Below are positions 2,905 to 52,819 of a DNA stretch of 64,000 bases, one piece after another. Both the position numbers and the translations under genes were made by a program. The stretch comes from Candidatus Omnitrophota bacterium (GTDB taxonomy: Bacteria > Omnitrophota > Gorgyraeia > Tantalellales > Tantalellaceae): positions 22,479-86,478 of the forward strand of contig WJMH01000015.1 of the NCBI GenBank assembly GCA_014728045.1. Direction: 5' to 3'. The notes under the pieces were generated by a model. That model searched no databases. It had not been told where the DNA came from and saw nothing but the letters and a program-made list of their open reading frames with translations. Position 1 is the first letter of the stretch. Every line of letters starts with the position of its first letter.

Positions 2905-4467
2905 TCAGTGGCGGAAATGGCGCTTCCCGGTAAAGACCATGGGAATGCCCAGCCTGTTACAGGCATCGATAACCTCTTTATCCCGGATCGAACCGCCAGG
3001 CTGGATTATCGCTGAAATGCCAGCTTTATGGGCTTCCTCCACAGAGTCGGCCATCGGGAAGAAGGCGTCGCTTGCAAGTACGGCCCCCTTCGCCCTTCCG
3101 GCTGCCTTGCGTATGGCGATCACGACCGAATCCACCCGCGACATCTGGCCGGCGCCTATACCGACGGTCTTGGTGCCCTGGGAGAGCACTATGGCGTTAC
3201 TTTTCACAAAACCCACCGCCTTCCAGGCGAAGAGCATCGATTCGATCTGTCCGGGGCCGGGCTTCTTTTCGGTGACCGCATCAAGGTCCTTTTTTGAGAT
3301 CTCCACGTTGTCCTTATCCTGCACCAGGAAACCTCCGGTGACCTTCTTGTAATCCTTACTCGCCCTGTCGCGGTAGGGCGCGAGCGCTTTTTTGAGGACT
3401 CTCAGGTTCTTTTTTGAACTGAATACTTCAAGCGCATCCTCCCCGTAGTCGGGGGCAACCACGCATTCAAAGAACCCGGCTTCCTTAATGATCATCTCCG
3501 CGAGCTCGCGGTCTATCTTCCCGTTAAAACCCATTATGCTGCCGAAGGCGCTCATCCTGTCGCAGTCAAGCGCCTGGATGAAGGCTTCCGGGAGCGTCCC
3601 GGAAGTTGCCAGGCCGCAGGGATTATTGTGCTTGACTATGCTGACGGCGGCGGAAGCGAAAGAGCTTACCATCTCAAGCGCCGAATCCAGGTCCATTATG
3701 TTGTTGAAGGAAAGCTCCTTGCCCTGGTACTGCCTGGCAGAGGCGAATCCCGCCCCGCCGTGTTTACCGCAGCTGTAATAGGATGCCTTCTGGTGAGGGT
3801 TCTCCCCGTACCTCAGGCTCATCGCCTTTGAAAGAGAAAGGTCGATCTTATCGGAAAGAGGTCCTTCGTCCTCTTCCTGGATCCCCCCGGAAAGATATTC
3901 GTATATGGCCCTGTCGTAGGAGCTGGTCCTCCTGTAGACCTCAACGGCAAGCTCTTTCAGGGTTTCCTCACCCAGACTGCCGCCGGTCCGCTCAAGTTCT
4001 TCTATCACCCGGGCGTACTGGCCGGGAGAACTTACCACGGCCACCGAGCGGTAGTTCTTGGCCGCGCTTCTGAGCATGGAAGGCCCGCCGATATCTATGT
4101 TCTCTATGGCCTCCTCCAGCGTTACGCCTTCTCGCGATACGGTCTTCTCGAAAGGATAAAGGTTCACCACGACCATGTCTATCATATCTATACCGGCCTG
4201 AGCGGCCTGTTCCATATGGCTTTTATTATCCCTTAAGCCGAGAAGGCCGCCGTGCACCTTGGGGTGCAGGGTCTTCACCCTGCCGTCCATCATCTCGGGG
4301 AACCCCGTGTATTCGGAGACTTCCTCGACATCAGCCCCCATACCGGCGATCTTTTTGTAGGTGCCCCCCGTTGACAAGATCTTGACCCCCAGGCGGGTGA
4401 GGGTCGCGACCATATCACTGAGTCCGGTCTTGTCCGATACGCTTATCAGTGCTCTTTGTACTTTCAC
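2905..4467 (-). CDS. purH: bifunctional AICAR transformylase / IMP cyclohydrolase PurH
   Basis: 520 aa. N-terminal MGS-like domain (ALISVSDKTGL) and AICARFT domain. Start codon is GTG at 4467-4465. Confidence 0.9.
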   Translation of the reverse strand: MKVQRALISVSDKTGLSDMVATLTRLGVKILSTGGTYKKIAGMGADVEEVSEYTGFPEMMDGRVKTLHPKVHGGLLGLRDNKSHMEQAAQAGIDMIDMVVVNLYPFEKTVSREGVTLEEAIENIDIGGPSMLRSAAKNYRSVAVVSSPGQYARVIEELERTGGSLGEETLKELAVEVYRRTSSYDRAIYEYLSGGIQEEDEGPLSDKIDLSLSKAMSLRYGENPHQKASYYSCGKHGGAGFASARQYQGKELSFNNIMDLDSALEMVSSFASAAVSIVKHNNPCGLATSGTLPEAFIQALDCDRMSAFGSIMGFNGKIDRELAEMIIKEAGFFECVVAPDYGEDALEVFSSKKNLRVLKKALAPYRDRASKDYKKVTGGFLVQDKDNVEISKKDLDAVTEKKPGPGQIESMLFAWKAVGFVKSNAIVLSQGTKTVGIGAGQMSRVDSVVIAIRKAAGRAKGAVLASDAFFPMADSVEEAHKAGISAIIQPGGSIRDKEVIDACNRLGIPMVFTGKRHFRH

Positions 4468-19617: not shown

Positions 19618-20511
19618 ATGGATCTGAGTCATACCATAATAGGATGCACGGCCGCTCTTATCTCTGCCGCCGCGTGGGCTTTCGACCCGATACTCTTCAA
19701 GAAGCTCGGCGAAAAGGTCCTTCCCGCGGCCATGAACCTGGGCAGGGCGCTGGTGGGGATGGTATACCTGTTGCTTTTGGTCTCTTTCATCGGGATCGAG
19801 ACGATGCCGGCGAAGTCCCTGCTTTATCTGGGGGTAAGCGGCATCCTGGGTATCGCCCTGGGGGACACCTTCTTCCTGATGGGGCTGGTCAGGCTCGGTC
19901 CGAGGCTTGCCGTTCTTATGGAGACCCTCTGCCCGGTAATGACGGTCCTGCTTGCTGTAGTGTTCCTCGGCGAACGCCCTTCCCTGCCGGTATGGACCGG
20001 TATCGTATTGACGATAGGCGGAGTCCAGTGGGTCCTCTGGGAAAGGACCCCTCGTGAAAAGCTCAAACATAACTGGCTGGCGGGCATCAAGTTCGGCGCT
20101 CTCTCTGTAACATGCACCTCGGTGGGCATAATATTCGCGAAGATAGGACTGGTCGAAGCCTCGCCCGTAGAAGCTACGATGGTCAAACTCTTTTTCGGGA
20201 GCATTGGTCTTCTCATATGGGGCTTTGCGGGCCTGCGGATAAAGAAATGGATCGCACCCTTCCGGGAAAACCCCCGGCTCGCGTTCAACCTCTCATACGC
20301 GGTATTCGTGGCGATAGGCATAGGCCTTCTTTTCTCGGTGATCGCCCTTAAATACGCCAACGCGACGATAGCGGTACCCCTTAATTCCACCAGCCCCCTT
20401 TTCGTGCTGCCCTTGGTCGCTTTCTTCTTCAGGGAAAAGGTCTCACTACGCGCGGTGCTCGGCGCCGCGGTCGCGGTCGCGGGAATAATCTTGATTTTCC
20501 TTTATAGTTGA
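19618..20511 (+). CDS. EamA/DMT-family transporter
   Basis: 297 aa, 10 predicted TM helices in the two-EamA-repeat architecture. Confidence 0.75.
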   Translation: MDLSHTIIGCTAALISAAAWAFDPILFKKLGEKVLPAAMNLGRALVGMVYLLLLVSFIGIETMPAKSLLYLGVSGILGIALGDTFFLMGLVRLGPRLAVLMETLCPVMTVLLAVVFLGERPSLPVWTGIVLTIGGVQWVLWERTPREKLKHNWLAGIKFGALSVTCTSVGIIFAKIGLVEASPVEATMVKLFFGSIGLLIWGFAGLRIKKWIAPFRENPRLAFNLSYAVFVAIGIGLLFSVIALKYANATIAVPLNSTSPLFVLPLVAFFFREKVSLRAVLGAAVAVAGIILIFLYS

Positions 20512-20525
20512 GTATATTCTAAAGC

Positions 20526-21953
20526 ATGGCGCAAATACGAGAAGATATCATGAAAATGGCCCGGCAGCGCCGGGAGGACTTTAAGCGCTTCCAGCAAGAG
20601 GGGCTTATCCCCCTTGACGGGGACTTTTTCCCTTCTGTGCACTACCCTCCCATAACAATGTATCCTCCGATAAGCGAGAAGGATCTTTTCAGGACCTATA
20701 CAAACCCTCCCGACGGTCTGTTCGACCTTTACGCTCACCTGCCCTTCTGCATACAGCACTGCACGTTCTGCCACTACCCGGTGAAAGTGGGCGAACTCGA
20801 AGAAGAGAAGGACAGGTACCTCGACGCGCTGGAGAAGGAAATGGATATCTACATGCGCCTTCTGGGCCTCGAGAAAATAAAGGCCAGGTCCATACTCGTC
20901 GGCGGGGGGACACCGACCTACCTGAGCCCCGCCCAGCTTGAGAGGTTCCTGGAGTTCTTTACTTCCCGTCTGGACACCAGCTCACTCACCCAGTTCACTT
21001 ACGACGTGGACCCTCCCACTCTGCTCGGGGAGGAAGGAGCCCAGCGGCTCAAGCTGATGCGTGATTTCGGAGTGAGCAGGCTGACCATAGGTCTACAGTC
21101 GCTTGATGATGAGGTGCTGGATAAAATGAACCGCCCCCACACCGCGAAGGAAGCCGTCGAATCGGTCGAAGCCTCCCGCAGGGCCGGATTCACCAACAAC
21201 ATAGAATTCATCTTCGGCTACGAAGGCCAGAGCCTGGAGAACTGGACCGAGATGATGGAGCGGGCTGTCGGGCTGGATACTGAAGAAGTGCAGCTCTACC
21301 GGCTCAAGGTCGTTCCCTACGGTGATTTCGAGGGTCCGGTCAAGCGCAAATACATACAGAACACCGAAAGCTTCCCCAGCCCCGAGGAAGCTATAATGAT
21401 GAAGCAGATAGCCATTTCCATACTCAACGAGAACGGTTACAGCGAGAACCTCAGAAGGGTGTTCACGAAAAAAAGAGATGATTACTCCCATTACGCGGAC
21501 AACCAGTGCTGTAAACTGCGTGACGAAGTCGGCTTCGGCCTTACCGCCTTCAGCAGCCTCCGGGACAGGTTCGCGCTCAACACGCAGAACTTCAAGGAAT
21601 ATTACGACATGGTCTCGCGGGAGCGCCTTCCCGTTAACCGCGGCCTGGTAAGGACAAGGGACGACCAGCTCAGGTGGGCCCTGGTCCTGCCTCTTAAGAA
21701 CCGGGAGATCTACAAGAGCCTTTACGAAATGAGAACAGGCGCAAGTCTGGATGAGGTCTTCCGGAAGAAAATAGAGAAACTCAAAAGGTTCGGCCTGTTG
21801 TACGAAAACGAAAAGCTCCTCAGGTTGACCGAACTGGGGGCTTTTTTCGCGGACGAGGTCTGCGAACAGTTCCACCACCCCGACTATATACCCTTCCCCA
21901 GGGAGAACTACGCCCGGGGGCAGCTCTATCCCTATGATGACTGGCAGCCCTAA
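20526..21953 (+). CDS. HemN-like radical SAM protein (oxygen-independent coproporphyrinogen oxidase family)
   Basis: 475 aa. CxxxCxxC (CIQHCTFC) and GGGTPT motif. Confidence 0.75.
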   Translation: MAQIREDIMKMARQRREDFKRFQQEGLIPLDGDFFPSVHYPPITMYPPISEKDLFRTYTNPPDGLFDLYAHLPFCIQHCTFCHYPVKVGELEEEKDRYLDALEKEMDIYMRLLGLEKIKARSILVGGGTPTYLSPAQLERFLEFFTSRLDTSSLTQFTYDVDPPTLLGEEGAQRLKLMRDFGVSRLTIGLQSLDDEVLDKMNRPHTAKEAVESVEASRRAGFTNNIEFIFGYEGQSLENWTEMMERAVGLDTEEVQLYRLKVVPYGDFEGPVKRKYIQNTESFPSPEEAIMMKQIAISILNENGYSENLRRVFTKKRDDYSHYADNQCCKLRDEVGFGLTAFSSLRDRFALNTQNFKEYYDMVSRERLPVNRGLVRTRDDQLRWALVLPLKNREIYKSLYEMRTGASLDEVFRKKIEKLKRFGLLYENEKLLRLTELGAFFADEVCEQFHHPDYIPFPRENYARGQLYPYDDWQP

Positions 21954-21957
21954 AGGC

Positions 21958-22833
21958 TTATTTCCCGCCTCGGTCCGATACAGGTTTTTCGAACACCAGA
22001 AAGAACATCTCGTTGGCGAATACCTGCCGTTCACGGCGCGGGATCGACCTGAAAAACGCCGAACTGCTGAAATCCTCCACGTCCTCCCGGTGAGATGCGG
22101 TCATGAATATGTCAAAACTCTCTTTCAGGCGGAACCCCACTGACTCGTAATTATCCACAACGGTATCGACCTCTAGGGCCATGGACACAAAAGGCAGGTT
22201 TTTCCTGTTATATTTGCGCATGAACGAATGGACGAACGGCGTGTTGATGATATCGATGACGACCGCCCTTCCCCCCCGGCTTGAGGGATCTGTATATATT
22301 CTCAACGAGAACTCTGTCCCTCCGGTAGAATCTGTCGTGGTACCTCCTCTGCGCGTCCGGATCTCCCAGAAAGTAACCGCAAAGGCTGAGAAAGGCCATG
22401 TCCGCGGTGTGTGGCGGAAGGAGCTGCTCCTTGTAGCTTTTTTTCATGAGGGTAACATTATCATACGGGTTAAGCTCATCGTCCTTGAGGGCTGATTGCA
22501 TGTACTCATCCATGCTACGGCTTGTCTCGGGGTATACCTGGATGCCGTAAACATGGCCCTCCGGCCCCGCCGCTTTTGCCAGTTTGAAGGTCCAGTACCC
22601 CGGGCCGGGGTCAAGATCGAGGATCTTTTCACCCGGGAGATATCTAAAAGCCTGATCACTTTCTCCGGATAATGCAATAAGTCCCTCTCCGGGCGGATAA
22701 GCTCTTCCCAGCCGAAAACATACGATCCCCTCTCAGGGCGGTCATTCTGCTGGAGCGAATGGGAAAAAGAGCAGACGAAAATGCAATAAACCAGGCCGGC
22801 GAGGACCAATGTTCTCTTTATGTGTCGTGTCAT
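21958..22833 (-). pseudogene. frameshifted paralog of the downstream secreted SAM-dependent methyltransferase
   Basis: Three consecutive ORFs (22444-22833, 22208-22513, 21958-22305) in different frames each align to successive parts of the intact paralog 22856-24280 (for example ILDLDPGPGYWTFKLAKAAGPEGHVYGIQV versus VADVGAGAGYWTFPLAKAVGPTGKVYAIDI, and MFFLVFEKPV versus MFFFIFKKPV). The C-terminal domain is absent. Confidence 0.6.
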
Positions 22834-22855
22834 TCGGCTCTCCTTTAATCCTACG

Positions 22856-24280
22856 TCAATCTTCCCCGGGAATTATCCTGAAAGAAACAGGATTGGATAC
22901 CACTTTTTTGATAATGGGTTCGCCACCATTGAAATAGGTCTTCATTTCCCTGGTGAGGGTCACGGTATATTCCCCCGGTACCCGGTCAAGGCAGTACAGG
23001 GTGGAACCAGATGGCCCGATCTGCGCGGTGAACCCCGCGCCCCTGTAAACGATCTTTCCGGTAACAGGGTCCTTCCATTCACCCGAGCGTATCTTCCATT
23101 CGGGCTGTTCACCTTCGGGCCCTACCGGGAAGAACTTGTTTCCCCCGGAGGCATCACCCAGAGCGATCGATTCAACCGGCTCTCCATCTGCGTGATAGAC
23201 CCGTGGCACGACCGATACGTTCAAGAACCTTCCCCTTTCCTCACCATAAGTAAGTCTCCGGTACCTGTCCTCCAGGGTCAGCCTTATCCCCTCTTCCGGC
23301 AGGTTACGGTACTCAGCTTTTATCCTTATGGTCTCTCCCGCCCGGTAGGTCCCCCTGTCGGCAGAGATCGTTACTCGGGCTGGAACTGACGCCTTCACAG
23401 GTTTCTTGAAGATAAAGAAGAACATGTCGTTGACGTAGAACAATCTGGCCTTCGGTGACAACTTCCTGTATACCGGAAGACTTTGGAACTCGCGAACATC
23501 CTGTTTGTGTTCCTCATCAGAATATAGGTCGTACTCCTTCTCGAAGATAAAACCCATGCGCTCGAAGTTCTCTTTCACCAGGCTCTTGCTCTTTGCCGCT
23601 ACAAAAGCCCTGTATTGGCCCAGGCTCTTCGAATAAAACCTGTTCGACCGGATAAGAGGAGAATCGAACATATCTATGACGATAAGTTCGCCCCCGGGTT
23701 TAAGGGCTCTAAAAATGCTTTCAACAACCCTCCGGGATATCCGCATTTTGGTCACATTGTACGAATAGGTATCCATGTTACTGGAATAGGCGTCCTCTTC
23801 CGCGGCGCGCAGTATCCCCATCTGGCAGAGGAACGCCGCGTCCAGCGTCTCCGGAGGCATACCTATATCGTCCTCGAGCGTCCTCATTATCCTTATGTTG
23901 TCGTGGACGTTCATCGTGTCGTTCAGGACCTTTTTGCCGAAATATTCATAAAGCTCCGGGAAATAATCGGCGTCGATATCGATCGCATAGACCTTCCCTG
24001 TGGGCCCTACCGCTTTAGCCAGGGGAAAAGTCCAGTAACCGGCTCCAGCGCCTACATCAGCCACCCGGTCCCCTTTTTTCAAGCCCATCAGATCTACCGC
24101 CTCCTCGGGATGGTAAATAAGGTCCCTTTCGGGCAGCACCATGCTGACCCAAGGGAAATCACCTTCAATAAGATCGGTCTCAGACTGTGTCCACGCACGC
24201 CCGGCGCATAGCGAAAGCACCATGAGCCCGGCTACTATCCCGCGCGGGAAAGCCATAACAAGTTTCATTCCAGAGAACAT
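22856..24280 (-). CDS. secreted class I SAM-dependent methyltransferase with extra C-terminal beta-rich domain
   Basis: 474 aa. Signal peptide, motif I DVGAGAGYWT, and a C-terminal ~170-aa domain of unknown function. Start ATG 24280 is preceded by AAGGAG. Confidence 0.7.
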   Translation of the reverse strand: MFSGMKLVMAFPRGIVAGLMVLSLCAGRAWTQSETDLIEGDFPWVSMVLPERDLIYHPEEAVDLMGLKKGDRVADVGAGAGYWTFPLAKAVGPTGKVYAIDIDADYFPELYEYFGKKVLNDTMNVHDNIRIMRTLEDDIGMPPETLDAAFLCQMGILRAAEEDAYSSNMDTYSYNVTKMRISRRVVESIFRALKPGGELIVIDMFDSPLIRSNRFYSKSLGQYRAFVAAKSKSLVKENFERMGFIFEKEYDLYSDEEHKQDVREFQSLPVYRKLSPKARLFYVNDMFFFIFKKPVKASVPARVTISADRGTYRAGETIRIKAEYRNLPEEGIRLTLEDRYRRLTYGEERGRFLNVSVVPRVYHADGEPVESIALGDASGGNKFFPVGPEGEQPEWKIRSGEWKDPVTGKIVYRGAGFTAQIGPSGSTLYCLDRVPGEYTVTLTREMKTYFNGGEPIIKKVVSNPVSFRIIPGED

Positions 24281-48722: not shown

Positions 48723-50051
48723 TCAGGCGGGTATATCGTGGGTATTCTTACCGGACAACAGCTTTGTATTAAGCTGCCTGGTGTATTCTTTGATCTTTTT
48801 GACCTGGCCCCATTCGGAGGCACAGAATGTGGGAAATATACTGTTATTCTGGTATAAAGGGTCCTTCTCATCAGCTGTAAAGCAGGGCGTCTTCGTTGAA
48901 CCCGGTACGGGTGAATATTCACTCAATGATACTTTCGCTCCCAGCGAATGCACGAGGTCCACGCTCCGCTTAACGTCACTGATGCTGGTTCCCGGCATGC
49001 CCAGCATCAGGTATACCGTGTACCTGCCTTTTCGGTAACCTGCCTTCCGGAGAGAGCCTATCGCTTTTCTCAGCTCCTCTACCGTGACTTTGTTATGCCA
49101 GGAGCGGGCCTTGTCGGGATCGGCGATCTCAAGGCTCAAGGTTGGATTAACGAACCCCGCCTTTTTCATGAGATCCGCTTTCCTCTGCGACATGAACCTT
49201 GCGTGCAGTCCGTTGGGGGTATAGAACCTCGCATCAAGCCCCGAACTTGTTATCCTTTCCAGGTATTGGACCAGGTAATCTCCCGCGAACAGGAGTGCGT
49301 CGTCATAAAATGCGAAGTTCCTTATGCCTCTTTCATAAAGAGCGCTGAACTCGCTGATGGCCGCCTGTTCCTCTTTTAACATGAAAGAGGGACCTAAGCG
49401 CTTCTGGGCGCAATAGGCGCAATCAAAGGGGCACCCGAGGGACAGCCTGAGAACCGCATACGCACTCCTCGGGTACCAGTCATAATCAATGGTCTTATCA
49501 AGAAGGTTCTGGAAGGAAAGATCATACCCTCCGCCCAAAAGCTCAGAAAGCTTATCCAGTTCACTGTTTGATATAACAATGTCCGCGCCGCTATTTAAAC
49601 GGGCGTGTTCGTATTCCAGCGTAGCATAAGTGCCTCCGAGCGCTATGGCAACTCCGGGGTATTCCATGCGCAGGAGTCTCACGGCCTCGAAAACCCCCGG
49701 ATACCAGTACGTCATGCCCGAGGAAAGAAGGATTAGGTCTATATCCTCTTCCGGCAGCGCCCCCAGGAAAGCTTCCACGGAAAGGCCGTACCTTTTGTAC
49801 TTTCTGGGTATCTTCTCCAGTATACCGGGCTTTTCTATTTCTTCCTCGCGGAACTTGCCCGTGCCATCCATATGATCCCTGGGTCTTTCATCAAGCCCCG
49901 GGTGATGCCTGTCGGTAGTATCCACCATGAAAAGACGCAGCCCTTTCTCTTTCAGGACCGCGGATATCTTCAAGAGCCCCCAGGGTTTAAGCCACAGGTC
50001 ATAAGCCGCAAAATCATATATCCAGGGGTTTACAAGCAGGATATTCCTCAT
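48723..50051 (-). CDS. B12-binding-domain radical SAM protein
   Basis: 442 aa. N-terminal B12-binding-like Rossmann region, then CxxxCxxC (CPFDCAYC). Confidence 0.7.
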   Translation of the reverse strand: MRNILLVNPWIYDFAAYDLWLKPWGLLKISAVLKEKGLRLFMVDTTDRHHPGLDERPRDHMDGTGKFREEEIEKPGILEKIPRKYKRYGLSVEAFLGALPEEDIDLILLSSGMTYWYPGVFEAVRLLRMEYPGVAIALGGTYATLEYEHARLNSGADIVISNSELDKLSELLGGGYDLSFQNLLDKTIDYDWYPRSAYAVLRLSLGCPFDCAYCAQKRLGPSFMLKEEQAAISEFSALYERGIRNFAFYDDALLFAGDYLVQYLERITSSGLDARFYTPNGLHARFMSQRKADLMKKAGFVNPTLSLEIADPDKARSWHNKVTVEELRKAIGSLRKAGYRKGRYTVYLMLGMPGTSISDVKRSVDLVHSLGAKVSLSEYSPVPGSTKTPCFTADEKDPLYQNNSIFPTFCASEWGQVKKIKEYTRQLNTKLLSGKNTHDIPA

Positions 50052-50596
50052 AAACGGCTCGTAGAGTAAGATTTTTTAATATGTTCGGAAATGCGCCTGA
50101 GGAAGTAGCCCAGAAAGATCCCCACGAACGCGCCGGCAATGACATCTGAGGGATAATGCACGCCAAGATACACCCTGGAGAACGCGGAAGCCGAAGCCAG
50201 TAGGTAAAAAAGCGCGGAAGAGCGCCTGAAGTTAGCCCCCAGTATATATGCGGCCATAAAGGCCATGGAAGCGTGAGCGGAAGGAAAGCTGAACCCACTG
50301 GTCGTGAAAAGCGTGTTAACCTCGGCCAGGGACATGAAAGGCCTGGGGCGGCCTATTATCATCTTAAGCAGGTAGACGGTCTGGTAGGTCAGGGTAACTC
50401 CCGCCATGAGGATCACACCGGTCATCTTTACATCCCTGCGCTTTACGAAAAGCATCAGTAATGCCACAACGAATATGATCCTGCCGCCTCCTATTTCTGT
50501 GATATACGGCATTACCATGTCAAGAAAAAGCGTCTTGCAGTCCCTGTTGATGAAGTAAAATACCGCCGTATCGATACTCTTTAAAAATTCCGTCAT
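50048..50596 (-). CDS. PAP2-family phosphatase (membrane)
   Basis: 182 aa. PAP2 motifs KxxxxxxRP (IGRPRP), PSAH (SFPSAH), SRxxxxxHxxxD (SRVYLGVHYPSD). Confidence 0.75.
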   Translation of the reverse strand: MTEFLKSIDTAVFYFINRDCKTLFLDMVMPYITEIGGGRIIFVVALLMLFVKRRDVKMTGVILMAGVTLTYQTVYLLKMIIGRPRPFMSLAEVNTLFTTSGFSFPSAHASMAFMAAYILGANFRRSSALFYLLASASAFSRVYLGVHYPSDVIAGAFVGIFLGYFLRRISEHIKKSYSTSRL

Positions 50597-51072
50597 GCGC
50601 CTTCCCCCATTCTCTTTCTGATGGCTTTTTCAAGCTCTTCCACCGAATCCAGGCGGCAGACACCCTCGATATCCCATGTCCCGAAACCGTAGACCGGTAT
50701 CTTAGCGTTAAGAGCGAAAGCTATCTCTGAAAGCGTGCCGTACCTTCCCGGAAGGGCCACCACCATATCGGGCGTGCCGGCGACCAGCGTGTTACGCGAG
50801 TAGCCCATGCCGGTGGCGATAACGATATCAACACACTTATTCGCCTCGGACTTATCCTCCCCGGGGATTATCCCCAAGGTAAGTCCGCCTTTTCCTTTCG
50901 CACCGCGGCAGGCAGCTTCCATGATGCCGCCGAGGCCCCCGCAGACAAGCACGGCGTCTTCTTCGGCTATTGTCTCTCCTATCTGCCGTGCCAGTTCTGC
51001 GATATCCCCGTCGCATTCATGCCCGCCGATGACCGAAACCATGAACCTTCTCATTATCTTCCTTTCTTTCAT
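50593..51072 (-). CDS. TIGR00725/LOG-family Rossmann-fold protein
   Basis: 159 aa; VSVIGG...VLVCGGLGGIMEAACRGA..GIIPG, typical of the LOG / TIGR00725 family. Confidence 0.65.
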   Translation of the reverse strand: MKERKIMRRFMVSVIGGHECDGDIAELARQIGETIAEEDAVLVCGGLGGIMEAACRGAKGKGGLTLGIIPGEDKSEANKCVDIVIATGMGYSRNTLVAGTPDMVVALPGRYGTLSEIAFALNAKIPVYGFGTWDIEGVCRLDSVEELEKAIRKRMGEGA

Positions 51073-51893
51073 ATACCATGTTTTTTCAAAAAAGAATCGA
51101 TCCCATCCCTGAAATCCGGATCATCGTACAATGGGTCGTTATGCCCTCCCTCTACGGTCAGAAGTTCCTTCGGCGGAAGTGCTTTACTGAAAAGTCTTTC
51201 ACCGTGGGAATAAGGCACGATCTCATCGGTTTTGCTGTACACGAAGAGCTTGGGGCATTTAACCAGGCCGATCTTGGAGGATGCGTCGAACTTCTGCGTT
51301 ATGAATTTCCCCAGGGGCAGAAAAGGATATATCTCCCGGGCCATATCCGGCGTTGAAGTAAAAGCGCTGTTGGCAATAAGGATATCGGCATCCACCCCGA
51401 CCGCCAGGTCGATGGCAACGTTCCCGCCGATGGATTTTCCGTATAGAACGATACGGTGCGCGCCGAGGTCTTTCTCTTTCGCAAGATAGCTGTATGCCCC
51501 CTCGGCGTCCAGGTACAGGCCCTCCTCGCTCGGGCTTCCCGAGCTTTTCCCGTACCCGCGATAATCGAATATGAAAACGTCAAGCCCCATCCGGTGGAAC
51601 ATCTGCATGATCCCCAACCTGTGGCTTATGTTGCCCGCGTTCCCGTGGCATATGAGGACCGCCGCCCTTGCGCTTCCCCGGGCGGGAATGAACCACCCGT
51701 TCAGGCTGACACCGTCAGCCGCGGTAAAATCCACCTCTTGGTAACTAAGACCGACGGACGCTGGAGTGGCATCCATCTGGCGTGTGGGAAAGTAGATATT
51801 GCTTCTTTCGAACCACTTTAAATAGAGGTAAAATAAAGCGGCCAGTATTATGGCAATGGCTATGTAATAGATGAATCTGCCTGCAGGAGACAT
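51069..51893 (-). CDS. alpha/beta-fold hydrolase, membrane-anchored
   Basis: 274 aa from ATG 51893 (MSPAGRFIYY.., preceded by GGAGGG). N-terminal TM helix and a nucleophile elbow GKSIGG. The ORF-track extension to 51998 lacks an SD. Confidence 0.7.
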   Translation of the reverse strand: MSPAGRFIYYIAIAIILAALFYLYLKWFERSNIYFPTRQMDATPASVGLSYQEVDFTAADGVSLNGWFIPARGSARAAVLICHGNAGNISHRLGIMQMFHRMGLDVFIFDYRGYGKSSGSPSEEGLYLDAEGAYSYLAKEKDLGAHRIVLYGKSIGGNVAIDLAVGVDADILIANSAFTSTPDMAREIYPFLPLGKFITQKFDASSKIGLVKCPKLFVYSKTDEIVPYSHGERLFSKALPPKELLTVEGGHNDPLYDDPDFRDGIDSFLKKHGI

Positions 51894-51982
51894 TAAAACC
51901 TCTTTCCCTCCGTTACCGGCCAACCCGCCGGAAATAAACACTCGCTTTGCGATAACGCGTATTTTTATTATATAATAAAGGC

Positions 51983-52819
51983 ATGATGAGACAAACATTC
52001 TTTTCGGTCATAATACCCACTTTCAACAGGCATGATCTGCTCAAAAAAGCCGTTGATTCGGTCCTGGATCAGACGTTCGGGGATTTGGAGCTGGTCATCG
52101 TCGATGACGGTTCAAGTGACGGTACCGAGCACCTCATACGCGGATACACCGACAGGCGCATAATTTATCTTCGGCAGGATAATGAAGGCGTTTCCCGCGC
52201 CCGCAACAGGGGCCTGGAACTGGCTGCCGGGCGTTATATCGCTTTTCTGGATTCGGACGACCGTTGGGTAAGCGAGAAGCTCAACAGAGCAGTCGACTAC
52301 ATTAACCGCTTCCCGGAAATAAAGATATTCCATACCGAAGAGATATGGTACCGCAAGGGAAAGCTTCTTAACCAGAAGAAAAAACACAAAAAACCCACCG
52401 GCAGTGTCTATCTCAAAGCCCTGCCTCTTTGCTGCATAAGCATTTCTACGGCGGTCATCGAAAGGGAGGTCTTCCGAAGGGTCGGGAATTTCGACGAGAA
52501 CCTGGAAGCTTGTGAAGACTACGATTTCTGGCTGAGGGCCACCAGTATCTATCCCGTCAAACTCATACCAGAATATCTTACCGTCAAGGACGGGGGCAGA
52601 CCGGACCAGCTTTCCTCGAGCGTATGGGGTCTGGACAGGTACAGGATAAGGGCCCTTGAAAAAATGCTGGATGCGGACGTGTTGTCTGATGCTTACCACG
52701 AGGCGACACTTGATGAACTTCGCGACAAGTGCAGGGTTTTTTCCGCAGGAGCGCTAAAGCGCGGCAATAAAGAAGCCGCCGGATATTACGCACGCCTTAC
52801 TGAAAAATATGAAACCTGA
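51983..52819 (+). CDS. GT2-family glycosyltransferase
   Basis: 278 aa. VIIPTFN and DDGSSDGT motifs, DSDD (DxD). Confidence 0.8.
   Translation: MMRQTFFSVIIPTFNRHDLLKKAVDSVLDQTFGDLELVIVDDGSSDGTEHLIRGYTDRRIIYLRQDNEGVSRARNRGLELAAGRYIAFLDSDDRWVSEKLNRAVDYINRFPEIKIFHTEEIWYRKGKLLNQKKKHKKPTGSVYLKALPLCCISISTAVIEREVFRRVGNFDENLEACEDYDFWLRATSIYPVKLIPEYLTVKDGGRPDQLSSSVWGLDRYRIRALEKMLDADVLSDAYHEATLDELRDKCRVFSAGALKRGNKEAAGYYARLTEKYET

Follow-up and report, generated by a model that had tools for sequence, protein, structure and literature searches.

Genes for exported modifying enzymes are of a kind that phase-varies in other bacteria, and MG/Ig-like domains are typical of extracytoplasmic proteins. Among transporters, SAMHT (CTL843) of Chlamydia trachomatis is a two-EamA carrier of the DME family that works bidirectionally, as an antiporter of S-adenosylmethionine (SAM) and S-adenosylhomocysteine (SAH) (PMC3104491). 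We describe here a locus that recalls these systems in several of its parts. It lies in a 64-kb window (the whole stretch of DNA analysed, 64,000 nucleotides (nt) of contig WJMH01000015.1) from a metagenome-assembled genome (MAG) of a Candidatus Omnitrophota bacterium. Two adjacent genes on the minus strand encode exported methyltransferases (MTs) of a family that shares motif I (D-V-G-A-G-A-G-Y) with class I, SAM-dependent MTs of the UbiE/COQ5-like group (PF01209, PF13847, PF13649): a long gene at 22856-24280 and, downstream of it, a short gene at 21958-22833 whose reading frame is broken. They converge on genes for a radical SAM protein and an EamA transporter.

An initial annotation of this DNA had already recognized two adjacent paralogous genes for exported MTs, the promoter-distal one being disrupted, and that much holds. 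Our own view of the event differs in part. Taken as a whole, the likely explanation is that an MT cassette within a conserved gene module held an ancestral pair of MTs, of which the short member was lost; the short gene itself is quite probably a real and very young pseudogene of a redundant partner MT.

Two frameshifts in the short gene

The short gene comprises three open reading frame (ORF) pieces (22444-22833, 22208-22513 and 21958-22305), all on the strand of the long gene. In a tblastn search of the long protein against 21701-22900, these pieces aligned jointly to its residues 42-295 at 30-36% identity, with a joint E-value of 4e-35: residues 42-83 matched in a first frame (30% identity), residues 70-198 in a second frame (36%) and residues 196-295 in the first frame again (33%). 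A second homologous copy thus adjoins the long gene, as the initial annotation had it, at a distance of 22 nt (spacer 22834-22855, minus strand, read directly from the sequence). E-values for the region (1e-32 to 1e-35) mark a similarity beyond chance, and the corrected product matches intact homologues elsewhere at E 1e-41 to 1e-47, and up to 1e-68 by blastp. Three overlapping frames had been reported; the three pieces are there, but the frames are two (A, other, A), with two shifts of opposite sign in a gene of 876 nt, or 292 codons.

The first shift (site 1) falls within a CCCGGG at 22632-22637 of the minus strand, which lacks one base in its CCC run (22635-22637) or next to it. Restoring this base yields ...LLDIS-PGEKILDLDPGPGYW, which holds motif I; the junction was set by alignment to the homologues P0002, P0003 and P0045. 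The second shift (site 2) is an extra G in a run of seven on the coding strand (G7; 22271-22277, minus strand). With six Gs the sequence reads ...LKPGGRAVVIDI..., the junction being LKPGG/RAVVIDI. Both single-nucleotide edits together give a 291-codon ORF without internal stop. A codon-usage profile trained on the long ORFs of the window matches both indel sites independently, its log-odds changing frame at ~22650 and ~22290. Left uncorrected, translation from the ATG at 22833 ends at a premature stop (22444-22446, minus strand) and gives a product of 129 amino acids (aa), native only in its first ~66. Positions 22305 and 22513, near which the frameshifts had first been placed, are no more than the places where the downstream ORF pieces have their first start codon.

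Once corrected, the gene encodes a signal peptide and an MT domain, the native architecture of the short forms of this family, and its product ends in ...NEMFFLVFEKPVSDRGGK with no beta domain beyond. The N-terminal hydrophobic signal segment is present, and the residues of the signal peptide and of motif I (DLDPGPGYW) are recognizable, as had been said of this copy. The ribosome-binding site (RBS) and the start codon are intact, a Shine-Dalgarno-like AAAGGAGAG lying at 22838-22846, ahead of the ATG at 22833.

GenBank splits the short gene into two coding sequences, MBD3426646.1 (172 aa) and MBD3426645.1 (115 aa), which bear the labels 'hypothetical protein' and 'methyltransferase domain-containing protein' and are not marked as one pseudogene; the N-terminal 129-aa piece has no GenBank annotation. 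A pseudogene is in itself a routine finding, and this one corrects a public record in which MBD3426645.1 and MBD3426646.1 stand as separate proteins.

The copy had been described as decaying. What we find is minimal: two slippage-type indels of one base each, no stop in the corrected frame, and every conserved family residue in place (all 22 invariant columns of a 12-member alignment and all 10 near-invariant ones). In a neighbour-joining (NJ) tree, the terminal branch of the short MT measures 0.285, versus 0.282 for its sister. The signs of relaxed selection that we looked for in the short gene (extra stops, lost conserved residues, a faster branch) are absent, and the pseudogene, if real, is therefore very young. 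A count of unique deviations at otherwise invariant positions gave 18 for the short MT and 1-10 for other members; we dropped its interpretation as degeneration on account of sparse sampling. With members of the subfamily added, the deviations in question (the FLSL motif, the Q that closes beta2 and the D of motif I) proved to be subfamily traits rather than decay.

We infer that the indels are present in the DNA of the organism rather than in the assembly alone. The short gene is the sole broken gene among ~46 ORFs in the window, and the intact ones include ORFs of 3484-3485, 1870-1871 and 1312-1313 aa, the largest extending over ~10.4 kb. Of the three G/C 7-mers in the window, the two outside the short gene sit within intact giant ORFs. 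Given two random errors in ~58 kb of coding DNA, the second would fall in the same 876-bp gene in ~1.5% of cases by our own arithmetic. Overlapping ORFs at 0.2-3, 48.7-52 and 54.8-56.7 kb had also been considered as candidate split genes and proved to be distinct genes with complete domains.

The most serious alternative is that the organism itself has two intact MT genes and that the indels are errors, or the product of a mixture of strains, at mononucleotide runs of the MAG consensus. Several observations point that way and weigh against a real pseudogene. Both indels lie at sites of the homopolymer type (CCC/GGG and G7), where consensus and assembly errors also arise, so that the caution on sequencing errors voiced in the initial annotation was a fair one. 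A MAG consensus may blend strains, and the protein collection searched contains no second, independent assembly of the same population. The corrected ORF is flawless in its invariant residues, branch length, RBS and start codon; nowhere except at the two indels does the gene look unconstrained, which is exactly the appearance expected of an artefact. Two intact tandem MTs are found, moreover, in the same layout in three other loci (L088, L087 and L006; see below). On the opposite side, there is no other frameshift in 64 kb, including the 10.4-kb ORF and the two other G/C 7-mers, and two independent errors within 876 bp of a clean contig are improbable on the above figure, which takes account of co-location alone. 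A run of three Cs is atypical as an error site. Finally, the nearest relatives are without the short gene, so that its loss is biologically plausible. On these grounds we consider an artefact unlikely, although we would not treat its probability as negligible.

The methyltransferase pair in related loci

The three closest genomes share the gene order of the window: pabB-pabA-ispH-polyprenyl synthase-MT-radical SAM-EamA-SpoIIE. Two of the corresponding loci are L001 and L002; the third, L003, is the one locus found in a scan of a genome collection and comes from the same species as L001. Each has a single long MT gene, which abuts or overlaps the radical SAM gene, and no short gene. Identities to the window proteins are 84% (radical SAM) and 78% (EamA) in L002, and 80% and 75-76% in L001 and L003. 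Because these genomes keep synteny without it, the short gene is dispensable in the clade.

Farther away, the identities of its radical SAM protein (72%, over the C-terminal part) and its EamA protein (48%) make L004 the next outgroup; it has a single short MT (P0045), an EamA gene and a convergent radical SAM gene. L088 (65% and 61%) has two MTs, MT278 and MT307, followed by convergent radical SAM and EamA genes and then by a SpoIIE-like gene; its layout matches the window exactly, with a 5-nt convergent junction and both MTs intact. L087 presents MT335 and MT305 and then a convergent radical SAM gene, and L006 presents MT318 and MT335 and then a radical SAM gene, the first 45 aa of which are seen at the contig end. 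In L005, where the radical SAM protein is 47% identical and no EamA gene was seen, an MT, a beta-MT, a beta domain and a radical SAM protein are encoded by overlapping genes on one strand. Tandem MT pairs recur, then, in four loci other than the window (L088, L087, L006 and L005), with spacings comparable to that of the window (5 nt in L088, 19 nt in L087) and with overlaps in L006 and L005. Since such pairs recur next to a radical SAM gene, the ancestral layout was probably one of two tandem MTs adjoining the radical SAM and EamA genes, and the event in the window is best read as the loss of one member of an old pair.

The most likely course of events can be sketched as follows. In the ancestor shared by L001-L003 and the window genome, one MT would have acquired the beta domain by fusion, after which the second MT would have become dispensable. 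The short gene would then have been cleanly deleted in the sister lineage represented by L001-L003, and in the window genome we would have caught it as a very young pseudogene.

One might argue instead for a lineage-specific insertion, in which the short gene entered by horizontal transfer, in the gap that separates the radical SAM gene from the long MT gene, and was later broken. The gene is indeed found in one genome alone among four close relatives and, with two lineages, a gain and a loss cost one event each. Yet in the outgroup loci L088 and L087 the same position is filled by a second MT that converges on the radical SAM gene. In L004, these EamA and radical SAM genes again adjoin an MT, which is the sister of the short copy. 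Nor is there any GC anomaly at the site (0.518 versus ~0.53 for the window). An insertion therefore strikes us as improbable.

How old the pair may be can be judged from the divergence of its members. The short and long MTs of the window are 32.6% identical, and the long MT ranks 11th among the blastp matches of the corrected short MT, the best of which is P0045 (38.6% identity, 206 bits). The family is rare: a profile search over 1.84 billion representatives returned 20 proteins at E < 1e-30. Nearly all of these 20 strongest members carry an N-terminal signal and, at 278-307 aa, are of the short form; intact homologues of the short MT span 278-335 aa, and the short form is thus the family norm. 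Most short forms end in a (F/L)(V/I/L)F(E/K)KP-type motif, which reads FLVFEKP in the short MT of the window. The long C-terminal fusion is confined to the cluster of the window protein and to a fragment, P0054. The beta domain further occurs as an N-terminal fusion in P0040 and, standing alone with a lipoprotein signal, in P0093; its sequence family is tiny, consisting of three long forms, P0040, P0054 and P0093. Since short forms dominate the family, the short architecture would be native and the long form derived. Judging by these sequence comparisons, the short copy never lost a C-terminal domain: it has no beta domain, as the initial annotation observed, and what falls is the notion that it once had one.

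NJ trees were built from BLOSUM62 distances with 100 bootstraps. The short MT belongs to a 'DxDPGPG' subfamily together with P0042, P0043, P0045, P0051 and P0053 (81-86% bootstrap), where it is sister to P0045, the single MT of L004 (68-70%). The long forms make up a separate clade (100%). Subfamily traits include D/E/N-x-D-P-G-x-G in motif I, FLSL instead of FLCQ, and T or Q where beta2 usually ends in an acidic residue. The short copy is an anciently diverged paralogue and not a fresh duplicate.

Duplication followed by loss had been the first interpretation of this locus. The loss of a copy stands; that the long MT gene underwent a local tandem duplication in recent times, and that the distal copy then decayed and shed its beta domain, we hold to be highly improbable. 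Such a course would account for two adjacent genes on the same strand that have homology, signal peptides and motif I in common. Against it, the alignment of the frameshift-corrected short translation to the long MT, which had been proposed as a check, gives the 32.6% identity cited above, versus 54% overall and 61% within the MT domain for long orthologues of different species. Furthermore, the short copy belongs to another subfamily, one marked by shared indels and motif variants (DxDPGPG, FLSL), and it ends at the FLVFEKP motif natural to the dominant short forms. Regulated expression, whether by slippage at G7 (phase variation) or by programmed ribosomal or transcriptional frameshifting that still yields a full-length product, would fit the opposite-sign shifts, the frame regained after the second of them and the G7 tract within a gene for an exported modifying enzyme, but deserves hardly any credence, since two separate recoding events are required, site 1, read in the incoming frame, departs from the canonical slippery heptamer (X XXY YYZ), no stimulatory stop or rare codon can be recognized at either site, the tracts are out of frame in no family homologue, and an Rfam scan of 19-26 kb returned no match to any element.

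We thus retain the loss of one member of an old pair, although two points speak against it. The deep NJ nodes are poorly supported (4-48%) and few loci stand behind an ancestral position of the pair at this locus. Besides, the MT partners of the window are not mutual closest relatives, unlike those of L088, L087 and L006, and pair histories differ between lineages.

The tandem partners in L088 (193-1958), L087 (119-2063) and L006 (298-2242) are each other's closest relatives at 41-48% identity, with supports of 94%, 100% and 85%, respectively. Either independent duplications or concerted evolution may have produced these pairs.

Radical SAM and EamA partners

We searched the radical SAM and EamA proteins of the window by tblastn against 89 loci. 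All nine core-family loci (L001-L006 and L087-L089) have at least one of these two genes next to the MT gene or genes. Radical SAM homologues take this position in L001-L006, L087 and L088, at 47-84% identity, and EamA homologues in L001-L004, L088 and L089, at 47-78% identity. The other 80 loci served as a control: they surround distant 'GxGYWTFxLA' MTs that were collected in a metagenome scan with the family alignment, where only MTs of <=35% identity were among the matches listed. In these ~0.4 Mb, neither gene was found in any of the 80 loci, again among the matches listed. Arrangements in the core family vary from convergent to co-directional and overlapping to divergent, and the association therefore looks functional rather than left over from shared ancestry. 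The literature yielded nothing on this gene combination, on the locus tag or on the accessions, and the module of MT, radical SAM and EamA genes appears to be undescribed.

The radical SAM gene of the window (20526-21953, plus strand) encodes a HemN/HemW-like protein of 475 aa and is convergent with the MT cassette, from which it is separated by a 4-nt gap. In domain terms, the protein combines Radical_SAM with HemN_C; its sequence contains GGGTP and, as a cluster motif, CxxxCxxC (CIQHCTFC). It scores below all curated NCBIfam cut-offs: 177 versus 380 for STM4012, 172 versus 325 for hemN, 148 versus 205 for HemW and 127 versus 400 for HutW.

Adjoining it at 19618-20511 (plus strand) is the gene for a two-EamA-domain transporter of the DMT/DME type, 297 aa long. 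The EamA orthologues match PF00892 twice; NCBIfam matches of the window transporter are generic and sub-threshold. SAM/SAH transporters of the DME family are characterized by two EamA domains and ~10 transmembrane segments, and the window transporter shares the EamA domains with them. An exported SAM-dependent enzyme would need SAM to go out and SAH to come in, an exchange for which an EamA protein of the DME kind would be suited. Arguing by analogy, we may speculate that the EamA protein supplies SAM and removes SAH across the membrane.

In L005, the gene for the stand-alone beta domain P0093 (1754-2356) lies beside that for the N-terminal fusion P0040 (315-1754), in an operon with a further MT gene and a radical SAM gene. 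As far as sequence can tell, this arrangement is a Rosetta-stone-type link of the beta domain to the MT.

Elsewhere in the window, three consecutive giant ORFs occupy 28294-48619 of the minus strand. An LMWPc phosphatase domain is encoded in the 1870-1871-aa ORF (residues 1481-1623) and a cNMP-binding domain in the 3484-3485-aa ORF (residues 1070-1158). Over its 234 C-terminal residues, the 1312-1313-aa ORF shows 51% identity to the end of another ORF, of 1313 aa, that directly adjoins pabB in L003. GC drops to 0.43-0.47 at 43-45 kb and at 48-49 kb. Small genes at 48723-52007 (minus strand) encode a B12-binding radical SAM enzyme, a PAP2 phosphatase, a SLOG/LDcluster4 protein and an alpha/beta hydrolase, all with complete domains. 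Scans for promoters and terminators gave nothing that exceeded shuffled expectation.

Exported methyltransferases and described systems

The 474-aa ORF at 22856-24280 (minus strand) is intact, as initially described, and is 100% identical to MBD3426647.1 (GF409_05405), our P0006. It comprises a signal peptide (residues 1-~30), a class I MT domain (~42-295) and a C-terminal MG/Ig-like beta-sandwich domain (residues 296-474; 22859-23395, minus strand), in which Pfam MG2 gives a faint match at residues 304-326. It is unusual for a class I MT that has an additional beta-rich domain at its C-terminus to bear a signal peptide, and here we concur with the initial annotation. The MT domain passes the Pfam thresholds for Ubie_methyltran (40.2 bits, cut-off 20.1), Methyltransf_31 (34.8, cut-off 27) and Methyltransf_25 (28.6, cut-off 27); the corrected short MT passes those for Ubie_methyltran (28.8, cut-off 20.1) and Methyltransf_25 (27.4, cut-off 27). 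The orthologues of the long MT are P0007 and P0008, to which the identities of 54% and 61% given above refer. Among solved structures, the nearest in sequence belongs to an uncharacterized MT of Aquifex aeolicus (3dh0, E 4e-14). An AlphaFold model of the full long MT, made from 3 sequences, had a predicted local distance difference test score of 43, and we draw no structural conclusions on the MT domain from it.

Invariant in the family are two Asp residues, of which one precedes motif I and the other lies in beta4; an LKPGG motif is conserved as well. Motif I reads DVGAGAGYW in the long MT and DLDPGPGYW in the short one, where Asp replaces the first Gly, as is common to its whole subfamily. 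At the end of beta2, in a position assigned from alignment alone, the long MT has D (VYAIDID) and the short MT has Q (VYGIQVY), T or Q being found throughout the subfamily. UbiE/MenG and ArsM were both rejected as identities. NF001240, NF001243 and TIGR02752 gave 33.8 versus 378, 32.6 versus 235 and 32.2 versus 420, respectively, and UbiE/MenG is also disfavoured by the export signal; for ArsM, NF008823 gave 39.1 with the long MT and 38.4 with the short one versus 263, in matches restricted to the region of motif I. All scores against the NCBIfam equivalogs of UbiE/MenG, ArsM and PIMT remain 5- to 10-fold under cut-off.

Twenty-two of 25 family members have an export signature, as detected with a heuristic, sequence-based scan (a positive n-region followed by a strongly hydrophobic 12-mer within ~35 residues), and the three members without it look 5'-truncated. 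AxA sites are seen in P0007 and P0008 (SANA/AD, AHA/AD), and lipoboxes in P0041, P0057 and P0093. By the positive-inside rule, the N-terminus is predicted to lie inside and the MT domain to face outward. The beta domain occurs alone with its own lipoprotein signal as well as fused to either end of an MT, which speaks for both parts acting in the same extracytoplasmic compartment. We propose that these proteins would be SAM-dependent MTs working outside the cytoplasm, on a substrate of the envelope or the extracellular medium. Against this proposal stands the subfamily of the short copy, where T or Q replaces the D or E of most members, a residue that normally binds the SAM ribose; the proteins of this subfamily are possibly not catalytic. 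The terms 'periplasmic methyltransferase' and 'extracytoplasmic methyltransferase' are absent from ~8 million full texts, and SAM-dependent methylation in the periplasm or outside the cell seems not to have been described for bacteria.

In the subfamily of the short copy, which includes L006:298-1254, Asp, Glu or Asn takes the place of the first Gly of motif I and Thr or Gln that of the acid that normally binds the SAM ribose. Its members may bind the cofactor differently or be non-catalytic partners.

The long MT diverges much faster than its neighbours: between the window and L001/L002 it is 54% identical, versus 80-84% for the radical SAM protein and 76-78% for EamA. This fast divergence fits an exposed, extracytoplasmic protein.

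Among the observations reported here, the module of exported MT, radical SAM and EamA proteins is the more interesting part. If methylation does occur outside the cytoplasm, the way in which SAM gets there becomes a question, as does the nature of the component of the Omnitrophota envelope, the prey or the host that is methylated. The natural 'knock-outs' in this family (a short gene broken here, deleted in the sister lineage and part of intact pairs elsewhere) provide a comparative handle on which components are essential. By extending the analogies drawn above, one may picture a dedicated extracytoplasmic methylation system in which exported MTs, acting as a pair, an MG-like beta-sandwich, the radical SAM protein and an EamA exchanger of outgoing SAM for incoming SAH would cooperate, and of which the window would catch a partner MT made dispensable by the beta fusion. 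We regard this picture as a doubtful one for the present.

Compared with described systems, the short gene is akin to slipped-strand homopolymer pseudogenes and phase-variable contingency loci in having single-base indels at mononucleotide runs of an otherwise intact ORF and, as with slipped-strand pseudogenes, the gene is lost outright in sister lineages. It differs from both in having two indels of opposite sign and no sign of on/off switching. In contrast to UbiE/COQ5-like MTs, the family described here has a Sec-type signal peptide or lipobox, a beta-sandwich partner domain, an N-terminal ERD...YP motif and a C-terminal extension that ends in NEMFFLVFEKP. Its partner domain is an all-beta sandwich like the MG/Ig-like domains of alpha-2-macroglobulins, of the complement proteins C3/C4/C5 and of bacterial surface proteins. 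The radical SAM protein shares domains and motifs with the HemN/HemW/class C radical SAM methyltransferase group (ChuW/HutW, STM4012), although it belongs to no curated equivalog of HemN, HemW or ChuW. As for the transporter, it has two EamA domains, as do the DME-family SAM transporters CTL843 and RP076 of Rickettsia prowazekii; these import SAM into parasites that are devoid of MetK, and the likeness of the window protein to them is one of analogy, the substrates of EamA proteins being many.

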